A program made the position numbers and the translations under genes. Below the pieces are notes generated by a model. The model ran no database searches. It was not told the DNA's origin and worked only from the letters and a program-made list of their open reading frames with translations. 64,000 nt of DNA, taken from the NCBI RefSeq assembly GCF_055900595.2, contig NZ_CM148325.1; one strand, 5' to 3'. Of this stretch, positions 15,897 through 25,090 are shown in pieces. Within the stretch, counting starts at the first letter, position 1, and the number at the start of each line of letters is the position of its first letter.

Positions 15897-16066
15897 AATG
15901 GCTCACTCAAGCTTGCTCACGATTGATTCCAGTAACAAACCGTATTGTGTAATTATTTCTATAGCAGGTCGCTATATAGGCTTGTATATATCGAATAATT
16001 TGAAAATCAAAGAGATATGTAGATTTTCACTCGAAAGTAGTATTACGTGTAAGTGAGGAGTAATTA

Positions 16067-16080
16067 TTGTTCGGTATCAA
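16067..16080 (-). promoter_or_regulatory. FNR-box-like site upstream of dmsA (TTGATACCGAACAA on the minus strand)
   Basis: matches TTGAT-N4-ATCAA consensus with one mismatch; lies 12 bp from the prophage att core. Confidence 0.5.
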
Positions 16081-16091
16081 AGGGAGACAAA

Positions 16092-16106
16092 AAAAGCGCC
16101 CGCAGG
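16092..16106. repeat. att core copy, integrase-proximal
   Basis: exact 15-mer shared with 53386..53400. Confidence 0.8.
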
Positions 16107-16192
16107 AGATTTAACGGTACTTACTCCTCTTGCTGATTTCCTTATTTTTCAATAAGTAAACAAAAACAAGGGGAGCAAATTATCACAAATAA

Positions 16193-17197
16193 TTACTGGT
16201 CGATGGACAGTTTATGGACACTTTCAGCCAGCGGATTAAAGCTGATCGCATCCTGTAAAAAGTCCGGTGAAAAATGCGCATACGTCATCGTTTGCTGAAT
16301 CGTGGCGTGACCCAGGATCCTCTGCAACGTGACGATGTTCCCGCCGTTCATCATGAAATGCGTGGCGAACGTGTGCCGCATGACATGCGTGGCCTGCCCT
16401 TTGGGTAAGTCGGGCTTCACCTCCTGAAGGATCTCCCTGAAACTGAGATAATCAACCTGATATAACAGGCCGGTCCGGCGGGTTTTAATTAACGGCACAA
16501 CGGAATCAGCTACAGGAACCGAGCGCGATTTCCCGTTCTTTGTGTTAAAGAACGTCACCCTGTTACCCACGATGTGTTCCCCGCGAAGCGTTGACGCCTC
16601 TTTCCATCTGGCCCCGGTCGAAAGGCACAGAATGGCAATGCGTCGTGCATCACCCTCAAGCCGTTTCAGAAGGCGATCAATCTCGTCATCTGAAAGAAAG
16701 GCCATTTCTGTATTCTGAACCTTGAGTTTACGTATTCCGCGCACAGGGTTTTCGTTATGATAAACCTCCGCGTCAATTAACAACGAAAACATCGCAGATA
16801 AGGCGCACAGGTCGCGATTGATACTGGACGGCATCAGTCCCGCCTGCAACTTATCCGAGCGATACTCAATCACGAATTTTCGTGTCATCTGGCTGGCGCG
16901 CGGGTCCCCCATTTCACGTATCACCTTCTCCAGTCTGGTTCTGTAGGTATCACCATATGCCTGATTACGACCATCAAGCATCCACCACACCTCAATCAGT
17001 TCTGATAACCGCCGTTGATCGGCGGGCCTTGCCTGCCACGGGTTATTGTGGAAATTCTGAAGAACGTATCTTTCGAATTCCTGCGCCTTTGATTTCAGGG
17101 TGAAAATCTTACGAATCCGCCTTCCTCCCGCCCCCTGAGGCCTTACATCAACCTGATAACGTCCGTCTTTGAGTTGCTTAATCGACATGATCAGCAC
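16193..17197 (-). CDS. int: P2-family tyrosine integrase
   Basis: P2 Int-like sequence (KQLKDGRYQVDVRP..., ILCLSTGARW..., catalytic region HVMRHTFATHFMMNGGNIVTLQRILGH...YAHF); true start may be the MSIKQL Met. Confidence 0.9.
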   Translation of the reverse strand: MLIMSIKQLKDGRYQVDVRPQGAGGRRIRKIFTLKSKAQEFERYVLQNFHNNPWQARPADQRRLSELIEVWWMLDGRNQAYGDTYRTRLEKVIREMGDPRASQMTRKFVIEYRSDKLQAGLMPSSINRDLCALSAMFSLLIDAEVYHNENPVRGIRKLKVQNTEMAFLSDDEIDRLLKRLEGDARRIAILCLSTGARWKEASTLRGEHIVGNRVTFFNTKNGKSRSVPVADSVVPLIKTRRTGLLYQVDYLSFREILQEVKPDLPKGQATHVMRHTFATHFMMNGGNIVTLQRILGHATIQQTMTYAHFSPDFLQDAISFNPLAESVHKLSIDQ

Positions 17198-19513: not shown

Positions 19514-19807
19514 ATGCTTAATAATAAAAAAAACCGAATCATTGATAACAGTGAACAGGTCAACAAAATAATCGAAGGCACAAACAAATTAATTAAGAAA
19601 AAAAACAAACTAAGCCGTGAATTAATGGAACATCCGGAAGAAATATTATTAGCCATGATGCACCAGACAGAAGCGATAGCCATCGCCCTTGCCGTGCAGG
19701 CGCTTTCTGAGTTCCGGGAAGAAAACATCAGGCTGGCTCAGGAGCTGAAAAACCTCAGACGTCAGCTTCAGAGCACTGAGGCTGGCACGTCATCACGAAT
19801 ACACTGA
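19514..19807 (+). CDS. hypothetical coiled-coil protein
   Basis: 97 aa, strong RBS AAAAGGAGA. Confidence 0.5.
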   Translation: MLNNKKNRIIDNSEQVNKIIEGTNKLIKKKNKLSRELMEHPEEILLAMMHQTEAIAIALAVQALSEFREENIRLAQELKNLRRQLQSTEAGTSSRIH

Positions 19808-20027: not shown

Positions 20028-20236
20028 GCAGCAAACACGATACCAACGCACGCAGACCAGGCAAAGAGGCGCGTCACCATATCGCCGTAATGCGCAACCT
20101 GCTTATGAGTGAAATCGACGATTTTGTGGCAGGCCTGGGGCAACCGGGCGAACCAGCAACACCAGGCCAGATACACAGGGAATTACGCCGCCGCGTGGAA
20201 AACGTCGTGGATTACGTCATAAACCCGAACGACTGA
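20024..20236 (+). CDS. hypothetical protein
   Basis: 70 aa from MSSKHDTNARRPG, ATGA-overlap with upstream gene. Confidence 0.45.
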   Translation: MSSKHDTNARRPGKEARHHIAVMRNLLMSEIDDFVAGLGQPGEPATPGQIHRELRRRVENVVDYVINPND

Positions 20237-20275
20237 CGGGAACATGGCGAGCGTCAGATGACACACGCAGGGCAC

Positions 20276-20758
20276 TTATCGGGAAAAACCGATCGTAATG
20301 GCAGCCATCATCTTTTCAGCGAAAGAGAGAGATTCACGATGACTGATATTCAGAGACATACAGGCTTTGTTGTACGCCACATTTTCCATGCATTCCAGGA
20401 CAGGAGAGTCATGCATCTCAAGCTCTGGAAGGCGTGCCAGCAGAGCTTCCGTACTGAGGAGGGCGCTTTTGGTAATCAACTCATTGTAGCGATGGGCATG
20501 CTCACTCGCCGCCTGCGCACGTTGCCCGAAACGACATATGAAATTACAGGCTCCGAGAACCACCACCACTGCCCCAAGCACCCAGCCGAAATGCCAGCCG
20601 GCTACGATGAACGCACCCGCCGCAAGGATCAAAATGTTGATGATCGCATCAAGGCGACGATTGAATACCGCCGCGATGCGCTCCAGCCAGTAGCTGTACC
20701 AGAGACGGAACATGACCTCATCCCGTTCTCTCGATTTTTTACGTTGGTTGTTTTGCAT
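20276..20758 (-). CDS. membrane protein encoded antisense to the early operon (moron candidate)
   Basis: 160 aa, RBS GAGGGAT, two hydrophobic helices (IINILILAAGAFIVAGWHFGWVLGAVVVVLGA) plus soluble C-terminal domain. Confidence 0.5.
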   Translation of the reverse strand: MQNNQRKKSRERDEVMFRLWYSYWLERIAAVFNRRLDAIINILILAAGAFIVAGWHFGWVLGAVVVVLGACNFICRFGQRAQAASEHAHRYNELITKSALLSTEALLARLPELEMHDSPVLECMENVAYNKACMSLNISHRESLSFAEKMMAAITIGFSR

Positions 20759-20992
20759 GGTGTTTTATCCCTCATCGTCATCGCTCTGCCCCTAATCAGC
20801 GCAGAGTGCAGGGTAACCTGGCTCGTGGAATTTTTGCAGCCAGACATCTTTACCCCCGGGCGTGTTGAACAAAGTGTCCGCCAGATCCACTGAACGGCGG
20901 ATTCATCAATGCTAACACGCCCTTCTTTTCCGGTTGAAGGCGAAAAAACCGGACCATTACCCCGACACAAAACAGAACAACGGAGAACAACT

Positions 20993-21547
20993 ATGCCCGC
21001 ACTTAAACCTATGGGTGTATCAGGTGTACCACCGAAGCATGTCAGAGCCTGGACACAACAGGAAGATGCTCTACTGGTCGGTTTATACCCCTCCCACACC
21101 GTACCAGAACTGACAAAACACTTTCAGAGAACCGGGCCAGCAATACGAAGCCGCATCCGTCTTTTGCTCTCTCAGGGGGTTATCCACACCAAACAACCCC
21201 CCCTGAATACAAAAGAACTCAACACGCTCATCAGGAATCGCCACACAAAAACCATCCGGGAACTCGCGAATGAACTGGGGCGCTCGACATCCACGGTGGG
21301 ACTGAACCTGAGAAAAAGAGGGTACCGGTTCAGGAAATACGGGGAACTCCACCACAGAGCCAGATACAGCGATCACCTGGTGGAGTTGGTAACTGAACTG
21401 CGCGATGAACAGGGGATGACATTCAGCGAAATCAGAAAGTACATCCGGGACACGGCCGGGATATCCCTTAAAAGATGGGTCCTCGCCCGGCTTTACGCAC
21501 GATATACCGCCGCTGACACCGTGCTTTGCGAACTGCTACCGGACTGA
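20993..21547 (+). CDS. putative DNA-binding early protein (HTH)
   Basis: 184 aa from MPALKPMG with GGAG RBS; HTH-like TIRELANELGRSTSTVGLNLRKRGY. Confidence 0.5.
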   Translation: MPALKPMGVSGVPPKHVRAWTQQEDALLVGLYPSHTVPELTKHFQRTGPAIRSRIRLLLSQGVIHTKQPPLNTKELNTLIRNRHTKTIRELANELGRSTSTVGLNLRKRGYRFRKYGELHHRARYSDHLVELVTELRDEQGMTFSEIRKYIRDTAGISLKRWVLARLYARYTAADTVLCELLPD

Positions 21548-21638
21548 GTAACCACTATGCACACACAAAAAAACCGCTTGCCATGCCGCAATCAGTCAGG
21601 TTACATTTCCGCTGCACCTCATAAAACGGGTGCCGGGA

Positions 21639-21833
21639 TTGCAACCCCCGCTGACAACTACAGCGCACAACCGCGCCAGCGGTTTTTTTGTGCGTACCGT
21701 ATCGCCACGTCTTTTTCGCGCCAGAATTATGGCGGGGCGTATGGGGCCGACTTCGGTCGGGCCGGTTTCTGTAGTTGCCGGTGGTTGCAACCCTGTACGT
21801 CTCGCCACCCAGAATTGCAACCTCTGGATGGTG
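21639..21833. repeat. TTGCAAC direct repeats (4 copies; three at ~30-bp spacing upstream of the 21868 gene)
   Basis: copies at 21639, 21766, 21796, 21827 in a ~320-bp noncoding stretch. Confidence 0.6.
21669..21690 (+). terminator. hairpin plus T-run (ACCGCGCCAGCGGTTTTTTT)
   Basis: GC stem followed by seven T. Confidence 0.45.
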
Positions 21834-21867
21834 AGTTTTCAAAACTTGCAACTACAGAGGCCACACC

Positions 21868-22092
21868 ATGGCAAACCGCAAACAACAGCGCGCATACGCT
21901 GCGCGTCGTCACATCCAGACTGAAATCAACCGCAGACTTTTCCGCGCATTCCGCGTCGCGCATATCATGCACATCAATATGCTGCATGAGCGCAGCCACG
22001 CACTGTCAAACATGTATTCCGCCGCTGTATTCAGCTACCTGGCGGATGACCTGCGCGAGCTGCAGGACCTCATTAACCAGCACCACCACTAA
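21868..22092 (+). CDS. hypothetical small basic protein
   Basis: 74 aa, RBS AGAGG, preceded by the TTGCAAC repeats. Confidence 0.45.
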   Translation: MANRKQQRAYAARRHIQTEINRRLFRAFRVAHIMHINMLHERSHALSNMYSAAVFSYLADDLRELQDLINQHHH

Positions 22093-22160
22093 TCAACATC
22101 CCGGAGCCATCCCGCCCCCGTACGCGGGAGGCTTCCGCACGTCCGTTTCCGGAGGTTCTC

Positions 22161-22574
22161 ATGAAGAGCGTTAAGGGACTTTCAGATATTCAGGATTTTT
22201 TTAACTGGATGTGGGCGGTGGATCCACGCCTCGCTTCCCGTCTCAATGACCTGCACGACTATTACCGCCGCGCCTGTAAACAGGCAGCCCGCAGCGCTGC
22301 CACATACGGGGATTTTTCCTTCACCGTTGACGACCGTTACCGCGTGGATGTCAGAGACCAGAACCACAGCCTGGAGCTGGGCCTGTTCCACATCAACGGG
22401 TGCGACAGCAGCGTTATCAGCTGGTCATCGTCAGAAATGGTGCTCGTTCTGGAAATGACCACCCACAGCGTGGTCGTGAAAGGGATTAAAACAGCAGAAG
22501 ACTTTATCGCTGAATACCAGCGCCTTCTTGTGCTGTACCGGGCTGCATTTCAGAAGGCAACAGCAGGGGAGTAA
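22161..22574 (+). CDS. hypothetical early protein immediately upstream of A
   Basis: 137 aa, RBS GGAGG. Confidence 0.5.
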   Translation: MKSVKGLSDIQDFFNWMWAVDPRLASRLNDLHDYYRRACKQAARSAATYGDFSFTVDDRYRVDVRDQNHSLELGLFHINGCDSSVISWSSSEMVLVLEMTTHSVVVKGIKTAEDFIAEYQRLLVLYRAAFQKATAGE

Positions 22575-22579
22575 GCGGA

Positions 22580-25090
22580 ATGAGCCATCACCACACGCAC
22601 CTGGCGTACCCGTGGAACGCCCCGCTGCCGGTTATTGATCCTGAGACATTCGGCAGAGCATTACCGCAGAAGCCAACCGCATTACAACGGGCAATCCGTG
22701 ACTACCTCACCGAAGACATTCGCACTGAGGCCCGGCTGGATGAAGAAACCGTGGCCTTCCTGACAACCACGGACAAAGGTAAGCAAATTAATTCACACCT
22801 TCACCGGGACGAAGAGCGGCAGATAAGGCTGGATAAGCTGGCACGACACAGACGCGAAAATCCGCCAACGGCGGTATCGGAGGCGATAGCCGAACTTCGC
22901 ACCCTGCCCTCGTTTCTTGCCAGTGTGTTGATCCGTGATCTGGCACGACTGAACCGGAAACAGCAAAGTGCCCGCAGTGAAGGTGTAAAAAACAACAGCG
23001 CATACGTGGCCGATAATTTCGTTCGCCGTGGACTGCGTGCGCGCCTGAAACGTATTGAAAGGGTTAACGACCGCTTTGCAACGCCGGCATTCAAAACCAC
23101 CGTCGTGCGCCATCGCCTTGAAGAACTGCTCACACTGCCGCAACTCACCCGTGACGAAATCCAGCGCATCGCCACACTGACAGCCCAGGCATTCGCCGCA
23201 GAATTTGAACGCATATGTGATGAAGTTCTTGAACGGACAGGCAAGGATAATGACAGCCCGGTTATCTGGCTGCTGGCCTACCAGAAGGTGGCACGCACAG
23301 CCTTAATTCTGGGCATGGTCCCGCCATACTGGCCGGAACTCGAAATCAGGCACAACCGACGCACACCGCCGGACCCTGAACGGGTTCCGGGTGCGGTACT
23401 GCGCATCACCTGCGCGACCTGGTGGAACAACCAGTTACGCCACGTCGCCGATCTCTGGCGGGAGGAGTTACTGCGCGCCGCCGGCAGAGTGTCACGTAAA
23501 CAATCCCCCTATATCAGCCATGAGTCACTACTGGAGTTCCGCGAGAAGCGCCAGCGCACCTGTGACTTTCTCAAAAGCTGGGATATTGAAAACGAAGACG
23601 GCGAGCGCCTGAGTCTGGAGGACGTGTACTGGGCTGGCCTGGGTAATCCACGCAACCGCCGCAATGAAATGATGGTCTGCGTCAGAGGGATGGAGATGGT
23701 GGCCGAATTACGGGCTGACGTCGCATTCTTCATCACAGTAACCACCCCTTCCCGCTTTCACAGCGTGAACGAGAACGGCAGCCTGAACCCGAAATACAAC
23801 GGTGCCACAGTACGAGATGCCAGTGATTATCTGGTTTACGACTTCTTCGCAGCCGTAAGAAAAAAAATAAAAAAAGAGGGGCTGGGCTGGTACGGCGTGC
23901 GAACCGCTGAGCCACACCATGACGGCACGCCACACTGGCATATGCTGGTATTCACTTCCCCGGAGAACGCAGAGCGCATCATCGAAATTATGCGCGAAGC
24001 AGCAATTAAATCAGATCGCCACGAACTGGGGGACGATATTTCACCGCGCTTTAAATGCGAGAAGATAGACCCGGAAAAAGGCACACCGGCAAGCTATATC
24101 GCAACCTATATCGGTAAGAACCTGGACGCCAGCGCTTTCCACAACAATGATCCGAAAACCGGAAAACCTTACGTTGATGAGGAATCCGGGAAAACCATGG
24201 CGGAAACCGTGGAGAACGCCATTGCCTGGGCAAGCCTTCACCGCATCCGTCAGTTCCAGTTTTTCGGCATTCCGCCCCGCCAGGTATGGCGTGAACTCCG
24301 CCGCCTTGCAAGCCAGATGGAGCGCAACCCGGCATCACCGAAGCACCTCGATCATGACGATATTGACGCCATTATGGCTGCCGCAGATGTGGGATGTTTT
24401 GCCACCTACATCATGAAACAGGGTGGTGTGCTCATTCCGCGCAACCAGTATCTGGTCCGCACCGCATACGAAACCGCAGACGAAGCCAACGACTACGGTG
24501 AACTCCCTCAACGTATCTACGGAATCTGCGCCCCGTCGCTCGGAGAGCGGTACACCATATGCACCCATCCGGACGAGTGGAAACTGGTTAAAAAAGAAAC
24601 AATACCAGACAACCGCACGGGCGAGGGTTTTGACCTTCAGGGCGACCCCGTCGCCCCTTGGACTCGTGGCAATAACTGTCCCCGGGATGAAAAAACAGAC
24701 AATCACGGACCAGAAAACAGGCAGGACCCCGGACGACTGACGCTTCCCGAAGAGAACCTGGAAAGCTGGCTGAATACGTTAAGCAGGGGCGATCGGAGAA
24801 AACTGCGTAATCAGATTAAAAATCAGCCGTCGGGCGCAAAAACCGGACAAAACGACACCACACCGGCATCTGACACCCCTGTAAGGGTGGGGATTGTCGT
24901 GCCTGCGGATACCGCGACGGACACGCAAATCGCCCGCGAACTTGATGCGCTGGGTGTGCAGTTGCCTGACGCGGCCATCATCTCCGTGCGTAACGGTGCC
25001 CGTGTGCGTCTGGATAACGGGGGAACAGCGTACTGGGATGAGTCAGCCCGTCACATCATCACAGAGCAGCCAGTGGAGGCGGGAGCATGA
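22580..25090 (+). CDS. A: P2 gpA-family rolling-circle replication initiation protein
   Basis: 836 aa; HWHMLVF histidine motif and catalytic Tyr region (YIATYIGKN) typical of P2 A. Confidence 0.85.
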   Translation: MSHHHTHLAYPWNAPLPVIDPETFGRALPQKPTALQRAIRDYLTEDIRTEARLDEETVAFLTTTDKGKQINSHLHRDEERQIRLDKLARHRRENPPTAVSEAIAELRTLPSFLASVLIRDLARLNRKQQSARSEGVKNNSAYVADNFVRRGLRARLKRIERVNDRFATPAFKTTVVRHRLEELLTLPQLTRDEIQRIATLTAQAFAAEFERICDEVLERTGKDNDSPVIWLLAYQKVARTALILGMVPPYWPELEIRHNRRTPPDPERVPGAVLRITCATWWNNQLRHVADLWREELLRAAGRVSRKQSPYISHESLLEFREKRQRTCDFLKSWDIENEDGERLSLEDVYWAGLGNPRNRRNEMMVCVRGMEMVAELRADVAFFITVTTPSRFHSVNENGSLNPKYNGATVRDASDYLVYDFFAAVRKKIKKEGLGWYGVRTAEPHHDGTPHWHMLVFTSPENAERIIEIMREAAIKSDRHELGDDISPRFKCEKIDPEKGTPASYIATYIGKNLDASAFHNNDPKTGKPYVDEESGKTMAETVENAIAWASLHRIRQFQFFGIPPRQVWRELRRLASQMERNPASPKHLDHDDIDAIMAAADVGCFATYIMKQGGVLIPRNQYLVRTAYETADEANDYGELPQRIYGICAPSLGERYTICTHPDEWKLVKKETIPDNRTGEGFDLQGDPVAPWTRGNNCPRDEKTDNHGPENRQDPGRLTLPEENLESWLNTLSRGDRRKLRNQIKNQPSGAKTGQNDTTPASDTPVRVGIVVPADTATDTQIARELDALGVQLPDAAIISVRNGARVRLDNGGTAYWDESARHIITEQPVEAGA

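Follow-up and report, generated by a model that had tools for sequence, protein, structure and literature searches.

The window analysed here is a 64,000-nucleotide stretch of contig NZ_CM148325.1 (assembly GCF_055900595.2), and is part of an Escherichia coli chromosome that carries a P2/186-like prophage; the subject of this report is a small membrane protein gene that lies on the opposite strand within the early operon of that prophage. Several complete E. coli genomes match the sequence between positions 19800 and 21600 at 100% identity, and in TUM1886, as annotated by the NCBI Prokaryotic Genome Annotation Pipeline (PGAP), the P2/186-like prophage adjoins dmsABC. The prophage genes are arranged in the order integrase, helix-turn-helix (C-type) repressor, Cox, small early genes and replication endonuclease A, followed by P2-type portal, terminase, scaffold and capsid genes (PGAP). 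In the orientation of the window, the early operon is read from the plus strand and the integrase and repressor genes from the minus strand. The annotated genes on either side of the 160-aa open reading frame (ORF) under study are all transcribed from the plus strand, with the upstream early gene ending at 20236 and a DNA-binding protein gene starting at 20993, and these neighbours bear out the description in the initial annotation of an antisense gene embedded between early genes.

The minus-strand ORF (20276..20758) has the features first described for it, namely 160 codons, two hydrophobic segments and a good ribosome binding site (GAGGG, 10 nt upstream), and PGAP, in identical prophages of E. 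coli, calls the same coding sequence with the label hypothetical protein (WP_029399959.1). In relatives the early operon continues unbroken to gene A, as seen in comparison with the related P2-like prophage L021, and a scan for intrinsic terminators found none at the convergent junction and none on the plus strand of the inserted segment; none of the folding z-scores at the junction is significant. Because the operon is unbroken in relatives and no terminator is detectable, lytic transcription should cross the gene in the antisense direction.

The initial annotation left the coding strand open, and a competing plus-strand frame of 211 codons does exist at 20258..20893. It is long, lies on the strand of the operon, and is open in all four alleles compared; the other three alleles come from further P2-like prophages of E. 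coli, occupy the same site with unchanged orientation, and encode proteins 54–60% identical to that of the window. The protein read from the minus strand aligns along its whole length with phrog_6315 (E=5e-65), a family that carries no function, and the plus-strand product has no match in PHROGs, PADLOC or NCBIfam. Substitutions sorted by minus-frame codon positions 1/2/3 number 48/30/91, 57/38/92 and 52/29/101 in pairwise comparisons among the four alleles, a distribution that has the pattern of a coding frame on the minus strand. Position 3 of the minus frame is position 1 of the plus frame, so that, read in the plus frame, the variation would be greatest at the first codon position. Within the lineage of the window, where alleles are 99.4–99.6% identical, the gene has five polymorphic sites, each of them at a third position of the minus frame (four synonymous changes and one F158L) and hence at codon position 1 of the plus frame. 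Together these comparisons indicate that the main ORF is under purifying selection, and the near-invariant family residues R35, G62, Y91 and A128 are all kept in the window protein. The gene contains no TTA, CTA or TCA codons, which are the sole codons that create stops in that antisense frame, and the shadow frame stays open for this reason. As far as sequence can decide, the minus-strand ORF is the gene and the coding-strand question is settled; the plus-strand ORF as a gene is ruled out by homology, the substitution pattern, the single-nucleotide polymorphisms and the missing stop-creating codons.

The frame equivalent to this shadow ORF has been called as a gene elsewhere. In Yersinia phage vB_YenM_42.18 (NC_070913) the deposited gp08 of 221 aa is the shadow frame (L014 5788-6453, minus strand, corresponding to NC_070913 2950-3615), and beneath it, on the repressor strand, is an uncalled family member 41% identical to the window protein; the gp08 call is probably a mis-annotation. 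In another family locus (L153 77-514, minus strand, corresponding to NZ_CP100500 3477372-3477809) PGAP starts the gene at Met16 to give a 145-aa product, and as the upstream sequence is unchanged, the start-site annotation of the family is inconsistent.

The gene is variably present. In L021 the DNA-binding protein gene lies 15 bp from the counterpart of the early gene, with no insert between them, and a screen of 5,426 complete E. coli genomes detected the gene in 32, with at least 99% identity in 26 complete genomes. These comparisons mark the gene, together with its upstream region, as a cassette, an accessory gene (moron) of a P2-like E. coli prophage. The moron character initially suggested for it holds up, with the cassette missing from L021, with conserved upstream elements of its own, and with family members in several unrelated phage backbones. 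The cassette is not marked as foreign by its GC content (0.52, with 0.48–0.56 in the flanks). Other P2-like carriers include prophages, one of them with a Toprim primase, and the Yersinia phage. In lambdoid prophages the gene lies between a pL-type operon and cI or beside the Exc/Int-side operon, and, in the late region, between Q and the holin/lysozyme genes; further carriers have it at a prophage end beside a Dam-type methylase gene, and in a neighbourhood with Nmad2 and DpnII-type genes. The flanking genes are both on the opposite strand in 11 of the 12 informative contexts, which span three kinds of P2-like phage, the lambdoid pL/cI region and the Q-lysis region, and in all of the P2-like phages the gene points in the same direction as the repressor and integrase genes.

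Hydropathy places two transmembrane (TM) segments at residues 39-55 (TM1) and 59-76 (TM2), separated by a 3-residue loop, and the N-terminal flank is rich in lysine and arginine with a net charge of +4. By the positive-inside rule the predicted topology is N-in/C-in with only about three residues in the periplasm, and the two-helix membrane protein proposed at the outset is thus upheld by hydropathy and charge. An exhaustive hidden Markov model search of 1.84 billion cluster representatives gave 162 relatives at E<=1e-3, including 63 at <=1e-10, nearly all of them stand-alone proteins of 150–165 aa. Word-indexed protein searches returned 6 and 11 close relatives, none with a Pfam annotation, and a related-locus search from a 4-sequence alignment returned four loci.

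The AlphaFold2 model, built from an 89-sequence alignment, has a predicted local distance difference test score (pLDDT) of 96.1 and a predicted TM-score (pTM) of 0.88. Its helices span residues 2-52, 58-75, 77-97, 103-114, 123-135 and 146-155; the first has a cytoplasmic amphipathic part that leads into TM1, and is followed by TM2 (58-75) and four more helices. The model thus has a cytoplasmic helix at the N terminus, a TM hairpin with a tight turn, and a bundle of helices in the cytoplasm, and the core layout of SLATT proteins, with two close TM helices, an N-terminal helix before them, C-terminal helices after them and a length of about 150–200 aa, is present in the model. A Foldseek comparison with AFDB50 gave 107 matches at E<=1e-3, the top one being SLATT-named with a TM-score of 0.94; about 22 of the top 50 are SLATT-named and others are DUF4231 or 'Fels-2 prophage protein', although these names are automatic and many of the matches belong to the same family as the query. 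In BFVD, an independent viral library, the best matches are SLATT-named proteins of giant viruses, and are weak (E 0.01–0.07, TM-score 0.5–0.66, 9–17% identity). The top NCBIfam match is recurrently SLATT_1 or SLATT_4 over the same region (approximately residues 25-105), with E=0.006 for the query and with the same two families on top in 9 of 20 diverse members, at E values down to 2.7e-5. A search of the PDB by sequence and by fold yielded no solved structure resembling the protein. Taken with the model, these matches place the protein as SLATT-like at the level of fold or clan, outside the existing curated SLATT families.

A small proline-rich upstream ORF (uORF) of 17–57 aa precedes the SLATT-like gene in 15 of the 16 family loci, as compared with 8% of shuffled controls, or 1% when a uORF with four or more prolines is counted. 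It ends 6–14 nt before the main ATG (24 nt in L027) and encodes a core motif, [FY]H..[HR].PAP[AP], with a charged tail after it. Examples are the L002 peptide, MSDSDKFHVPRQPAPAPEKGQGRDDEEG, and the L010 peptide, MYRSDYEERHMPPFKRPKPQPKPKPEDE; the L006 peptide begins MSEDRKDYHRIHRPAPAEQAPPK... and that of the Yersinia phage ends ...FHILHKPAPPEEKKTDDEE. Between L002 and L003 the uORF has eight synonymous and two non-synonymous changes, and is therefore translated and under purifying selection. The peptide has no PHROG match. It may be a translation-sensing or arrest leader, or a small partner of the membrane protein; an arrest or elongation factor P (EF-P)-dependent leader is conceivable because PAPP-D/E and PPP motifs depend on EF-P. 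The window allele is the exception among the 16 loci and the only one in which the uORF is frameshifted and stopped. The ATG at 20847 is shifted by 1 nt from the reading frame of the homologous 'KFHEPGYPA' segment, an in-frame TAG lies inside GATTAGGGG (20797..20789), and the homologous stop, TAA, is 6 nt before the main ATG.

A gap of 234 bp separates the gene from the next one on the plus strand, and within this gap the block at 20918-20960 is near-invariant among the four alleles, of which the coding DNA is only ~65–70% identical. Adjoining this block is an extended -10-like element, and in 11 of 15 family loci a motif of this kind precedes the uORF start by 35–72 nt; conservation is confined to its TG and the T1, A2 and T6 positions, and these are the positions that matter for sigma-70 recognition. 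From this conservation we infer a promoter for the minus-strand gene. A divergent promoter region had been proposed at 20760..20990, and the part of that claim that stands is the presence there of conserved non-coding elements, including the minus-strand extended -10-like element; a plus-strand promoter is unsupported.

Three hairpins accompany the putative promoter. In distant loci the equivalent of hairpin C begins 3–8 nt after the -10-like element, and hairpin C is predicted to be the 5'-terminal stem-loop of the mRNA. Hairpins A and B also recur in distant loci (L005, L006, L014, L026 and L029), with arms that differ in sequence but remain complementary and with the CCGG core kept; the arms of A elsewhere are GCCGGG/CCCGGC, GCCGGAT/GTCCGGC and CCGATT/GATCGG, and those of B are ACCATGC/GCATGGT, GCCGT/ACGGC and GACCCT/AGGGTT. 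In several loci hairpin B is followed by TTTTG and is terminator-like, abutting the promoter, which is not so in the window. RNAalifold, run on a MAFFT alignment of the upstream regions, returned no structure, with the hairpins out of register, and the hairpins were checked locus by locus instead. A scan of IMG/VR with the pattern GCCGG-N-CCGGC-N-TGTGGTA gave at least 120 matches, only one of them (L091) beside a family gene; the pattern is too unspecific, and the scan is uninformative on specificity. No repeated operator matching the conserved inverted repeat is present elsewhere in the prophage.

Table 1. Features of the antisense gene, its upstream region and the neighbouring prophage segments (window coordinates unless stated)
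Feature	Coordinates	Strand	Basis or remark
Coding sequence, 160-aa SLATT-like 2-TM protein	20276..20758, stop included	-	ATG start
Shine-Dalgarno sequence GAGGG	20769..20773	-	10 nt upstream of ATG at 20758; read from sequence
Degenerate uORF remnant	20765..20847	-	alignment with L002/L003/L004 and frame analysis
Leader hairpin C (TCCGCC..GGCGGA)	20877..20901	-	consensus fold of four alleles, two compensatory pairs
Extended -10-like element TGTTAGCAT (TGnTAnnnT)	20909..20917	-	conservation
Hairpin B (CGCCTTC/GAAGGGCG)	20942..20918	-	mutually exclusive with A
Hairpin A (TCCGGTT/AACCGGA)	20953..20929	-	mutually exclusive with B; just upstream of the -10-like element
Shadow ORF, 211 aa, non-coding	20258..20893	+	antisense to gene, codon position 2 opposite position 2
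Convergent junction, last upstream early gene and 3' end of minus-strand gene	20237..20275	.	no intrinsic terminator detected
uORF in related loci	L002 6557-6650; L003 6378-6471 (locus coordinates)	-	also in L004, L005, L006, L010, L014, L016-L018, L026-L029
STnc130 small RNA match	16000-16121	+	Rfam 107 bits; 5' end cut by search-region edge
Integrase gene	16193-17188	-	
DNA-binding protein gene, 184 aa	20993-21547	+	phrog_323 'transcriptional regulator, D5-like', E=2e-27
Promoter-like site	21578-21607		precedes IsrK
IsrK Hfq-binding RNA	21614-21689	+	Rfam 60.1 bits, gathering cut-off 50
C4 antisense RNA	21725-21812	+	Rfam 80.1 bits, gathering cut-off 45
'Derepression protein' gene	21868-22092		IsrK and C4 RNAs directly 5'
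Replication endonuclease A gene	22580-25090	+	

The neighbouring early region is itself mosaic. The DNA-binding protein gene is an indel, missing in L003 and L004, where the conserved block upstream of the SLATT-like gene abuts the IsrK region. The IsrK, C4 and derepression genes make up a P1/P4-style RNA-controlled antirepressor module within the P2-like early region, and a 205-aa ORF at 21557..22174 is judged spurious because it overlaps this module. The module segment (21557-22082, plus strand) is common, being present in ~1,200 of the 5,426 complete E. coli genomes at 80–90% identity, and often adjoins 'ash family' (P4-like satellite) genes; the neighbouring SLATT-like gene is in only 32 genomes. 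At the other end of the prophage, a match to the STnc130 small RNA lies just outside the integrase gene, and the prophage attachment site is therefore likely at or beside this small RNA locus, upstream of dmsA.

By analogy with characterized systems, the gene is a good candidate for a function that shields the lysogen against other phages. SLATT proteins (SMODS and SLOG-associating 2TM effectors, with a Pfam clan that takes in DUF4231) are widespread in bacterial immunity and are predicted to form pores; CBASS and DRT10 (UG17) use them as effectors, and RADAR and DRT3 have them as accessory proteins (PMC9226505, PMC12632851, 10.64898/2026.04.29.721553). In DRT10 they are required effectors (PMC12632851, PMC9226505), and what activates them has yet to be worked out, even for CBASS and DRT10 (PMC12632851). 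The window protein resembles them in size (~150–190 aa), in its N-terminal helix, tight two-TM hairpin and C-terminal helices, and in the occurrence of its family on mobile elements and in defence-type neighbourhoods. It differs in that it stands alone, with no conserved CD-NTase, SLOG, reverse transcriptase (RT), TIR or other partner, in that its relatives are preceded by a tiny proline-rich ORF, and in that the gene lies antisense inside phage lytic operons.

This last arrangement is reminiscent of lambda sieB, a plus-strand gene inside the minus-strand pL operon, which likewise is a small membrane protein gene of a prophage in opposite orientation to the early operon. SieB (superinfection exclusion B) of lambda and P22 is a membrane protein that acts by abortive infection, with an internal Esc product as a further element of self-immunity. 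In P22, the phage-made antisense RNA sas controls sieB translation and so confers self-immunity (PMC7067206, PMC12197685). The phage that carries the window gene is P2/186-like, not lambdoid, and homology to lambda SieB was considered and rejected, with an hhalign probability of 0.1% for an 89-sequence profile and no match to Pfam SieB (PF14163). The P2 genes old, tin and fun(Z) and the P2 hotspot systems are similarly non-essential cargo that varies between related P2-like phages (PMC9122126). They differ from the window gene, which is within the early operon upstream of gene A, not at the hotspot of Rousset et al., is antisense, and has neither a sequence relationship to them nor a PADLOC match. 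A further proposed likeness is to lambda RexB, as a lysogen-expressed inner-membrane protein that collapses the membrane potential upon superinfection, and a lambdoid family member is in the same general region, beside cI. RexB, the membrane channel component of RexAB, an abortive-infection system, has four TM helices and depends on RexA as its sensor. The window protein has two TM helices, no partner, and no homology to RexB in any search (PHROGs, NCBIfam, Pfam).

We propose that the gene encodes a lysogen-expressed membrane effector that aborts or excludes superinfecting phages and is silenced by the early transcription of the resident phage. In the lysogen, the early promoter would be repressed and the gene would be transcribed from its own -35-independent extended -10 promoter (~20917..20909), giving an mRNA that would begin with a stabilising stem-loop. 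Upon infection by another phage, the inner-membrane protein would oligomerise and permeabilise or depolarise the membrane, and the infection would be aborted, an outcome already proposed for the SLATT effectors of CBASS and DRT10 and brought about by SieB in lambda and P22. When the resident prophage enters the lytic cycle, transcription of the early operon would have to run antisense over the gene to reach the replication genes, and convergent transcription or antisense RNA would shut the gene off, sparing the phage from killing its own infection. Taken as a whole this chain is tentative, and slightly more apt to fail at one of its steps than to hold throughout. A more elaborate form of it, which we regard as rather unlikely, is a hitherto undescribed, self-contained exclusion module of temperate phages, in which a stand-alone SLATT-like pore protein is paired with a co-translated proline-rich leader peptide and is placed antisense in lytic operons for switch-off by early transcription; the peptide would either sense the state of translation, through EF-P-dependent or arrest-type stalling, or restrain the pore, and the window allele would work without it.

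Several observations weigh against a lysogen-expressed exclusion effector. The assignment to SLATT is below the curated NCBIfam thresholds, the query scoring 16.5 bits to SLATT_1 (cut-off 41) and the family members 14.7–24.1 bits to SLATT_4 (cut-off 55); Pfam SLATT is absent from the query and from 89 members, which have only weak TM-driven matches such as BaxI_1 and ATP-synt_I; and PADLOC-DB v2 gave nothing significant, only LeoBC over the TM region (E=0.018, 12.2 bits). Across 16 loci, drawn from P2-like, lambdoid and other settings, no conserved sensor or signal-generating partner accompanies the gene: none has a CD-NTase/SMODS, SLOG, TIR, reverse transcriptase or RADAR neighbour, and one adjoins Nmad2 and restriction enzyme genes. 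A stricter consensus promoter scan called nothing in the upstream region on either strand, the site is not among the described P2 defence hotspots (PMC9122126), and the uORF is broken in the window allele, so that the module may be altered or partly decayed there.

The same uORF bears on a role for the resident phage itself, which we consider unlikely. The protein would then act as a toxin for addiction or prophage stability, the antidote being the proline-rich peptide or the antisense early transcript, or else as a membrane factor that tunes induction or lysis. A co-conserved small ORF just before the gene in 15 of the 16 loci does resemble a toxin-antidote pair, the overlap with early transcription could serve as an antitoxin RNA, and SLATT-linked toxicity has been reported for an RT-SLATT locus (PMC9226505). 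However, the window allele persists with no intact small ORF, at 99% identity or more in the 26 complete genomes, which argues against an essential antidote; moreover, the gene is dispensable in closely related prophages and its orientation opposes expression in the lytic cycle.

Superinfection exclusion could also operate with no suicide pore, the protein blocking DNA entry at the inner membrane in the manner of P22 SieA, T4 Imm or HK97 gp15. A small inner-membrane prophage protein placed like a lysogen-expressed moron would suit this role, no sensor partner is present, and a broken uORF would be easier to understand as a tolerated change if the protein is not intrinsically toxic. Set against these points, a periplasmic loop of ~3 residues and an otherwise almost wholly cytoplasmic protein would leave little surface for meeting an injection apparatus, and the proteins nearest in fold belong with the SLATT effectors and not with Sie or Imm; an entry block is on balance quite unlikely.

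The frameshifted and stopped uORF, found only in this allele, together with the 54–60% identity of the protein to alleles that keep the uORF, could instead mark the gene as the decaying remnant of a former two-ORF module, open but non-functional in this prophage lineage. We consider this improbable, as the 160-codon ORF is intact and retains R35, G62, Y91 and A128, the product models at pLDDT 96, the polymorphisms are solely at third positions, and the promoter-like block is near-invariant. That the 211-aa plus-strand ORF is a real gene continuing the early operon is refuted at the sequence level by the evidence given above, and retains next to no probability.

The assignment of the fold is not in itself new, as automatic annotation already labels close homologues as SLATT. 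In the literature we found no account of a stand-alone SLATT gene in P2-like early operons, and what is new here is the stand-alone gene, its antisense placement in lytic operons across phage types, the shared promoter and hairpin architecture, the proline-rich leader ORF, and the resolution of the shadow ORF. The last of these is of practical use, showing how a real gene can be told from a long shadow ORF that has been annotated in its place in at least one deposited phage genome. Free of any enzyme partner, a SLATT-like gene that stands alone would offer the simplest available system in which to study the trigger of SLATT proteins and their effect on the membrane. If the proposed role as a lysogen-expressed exclusion effector is true, the principle seen in sieB, an exclusion gene antisense in an early operon, would extend from lambdoid to P2-like phages, and the cassette would point to a position for defence genes in P2-like phages outside the published hotspots.

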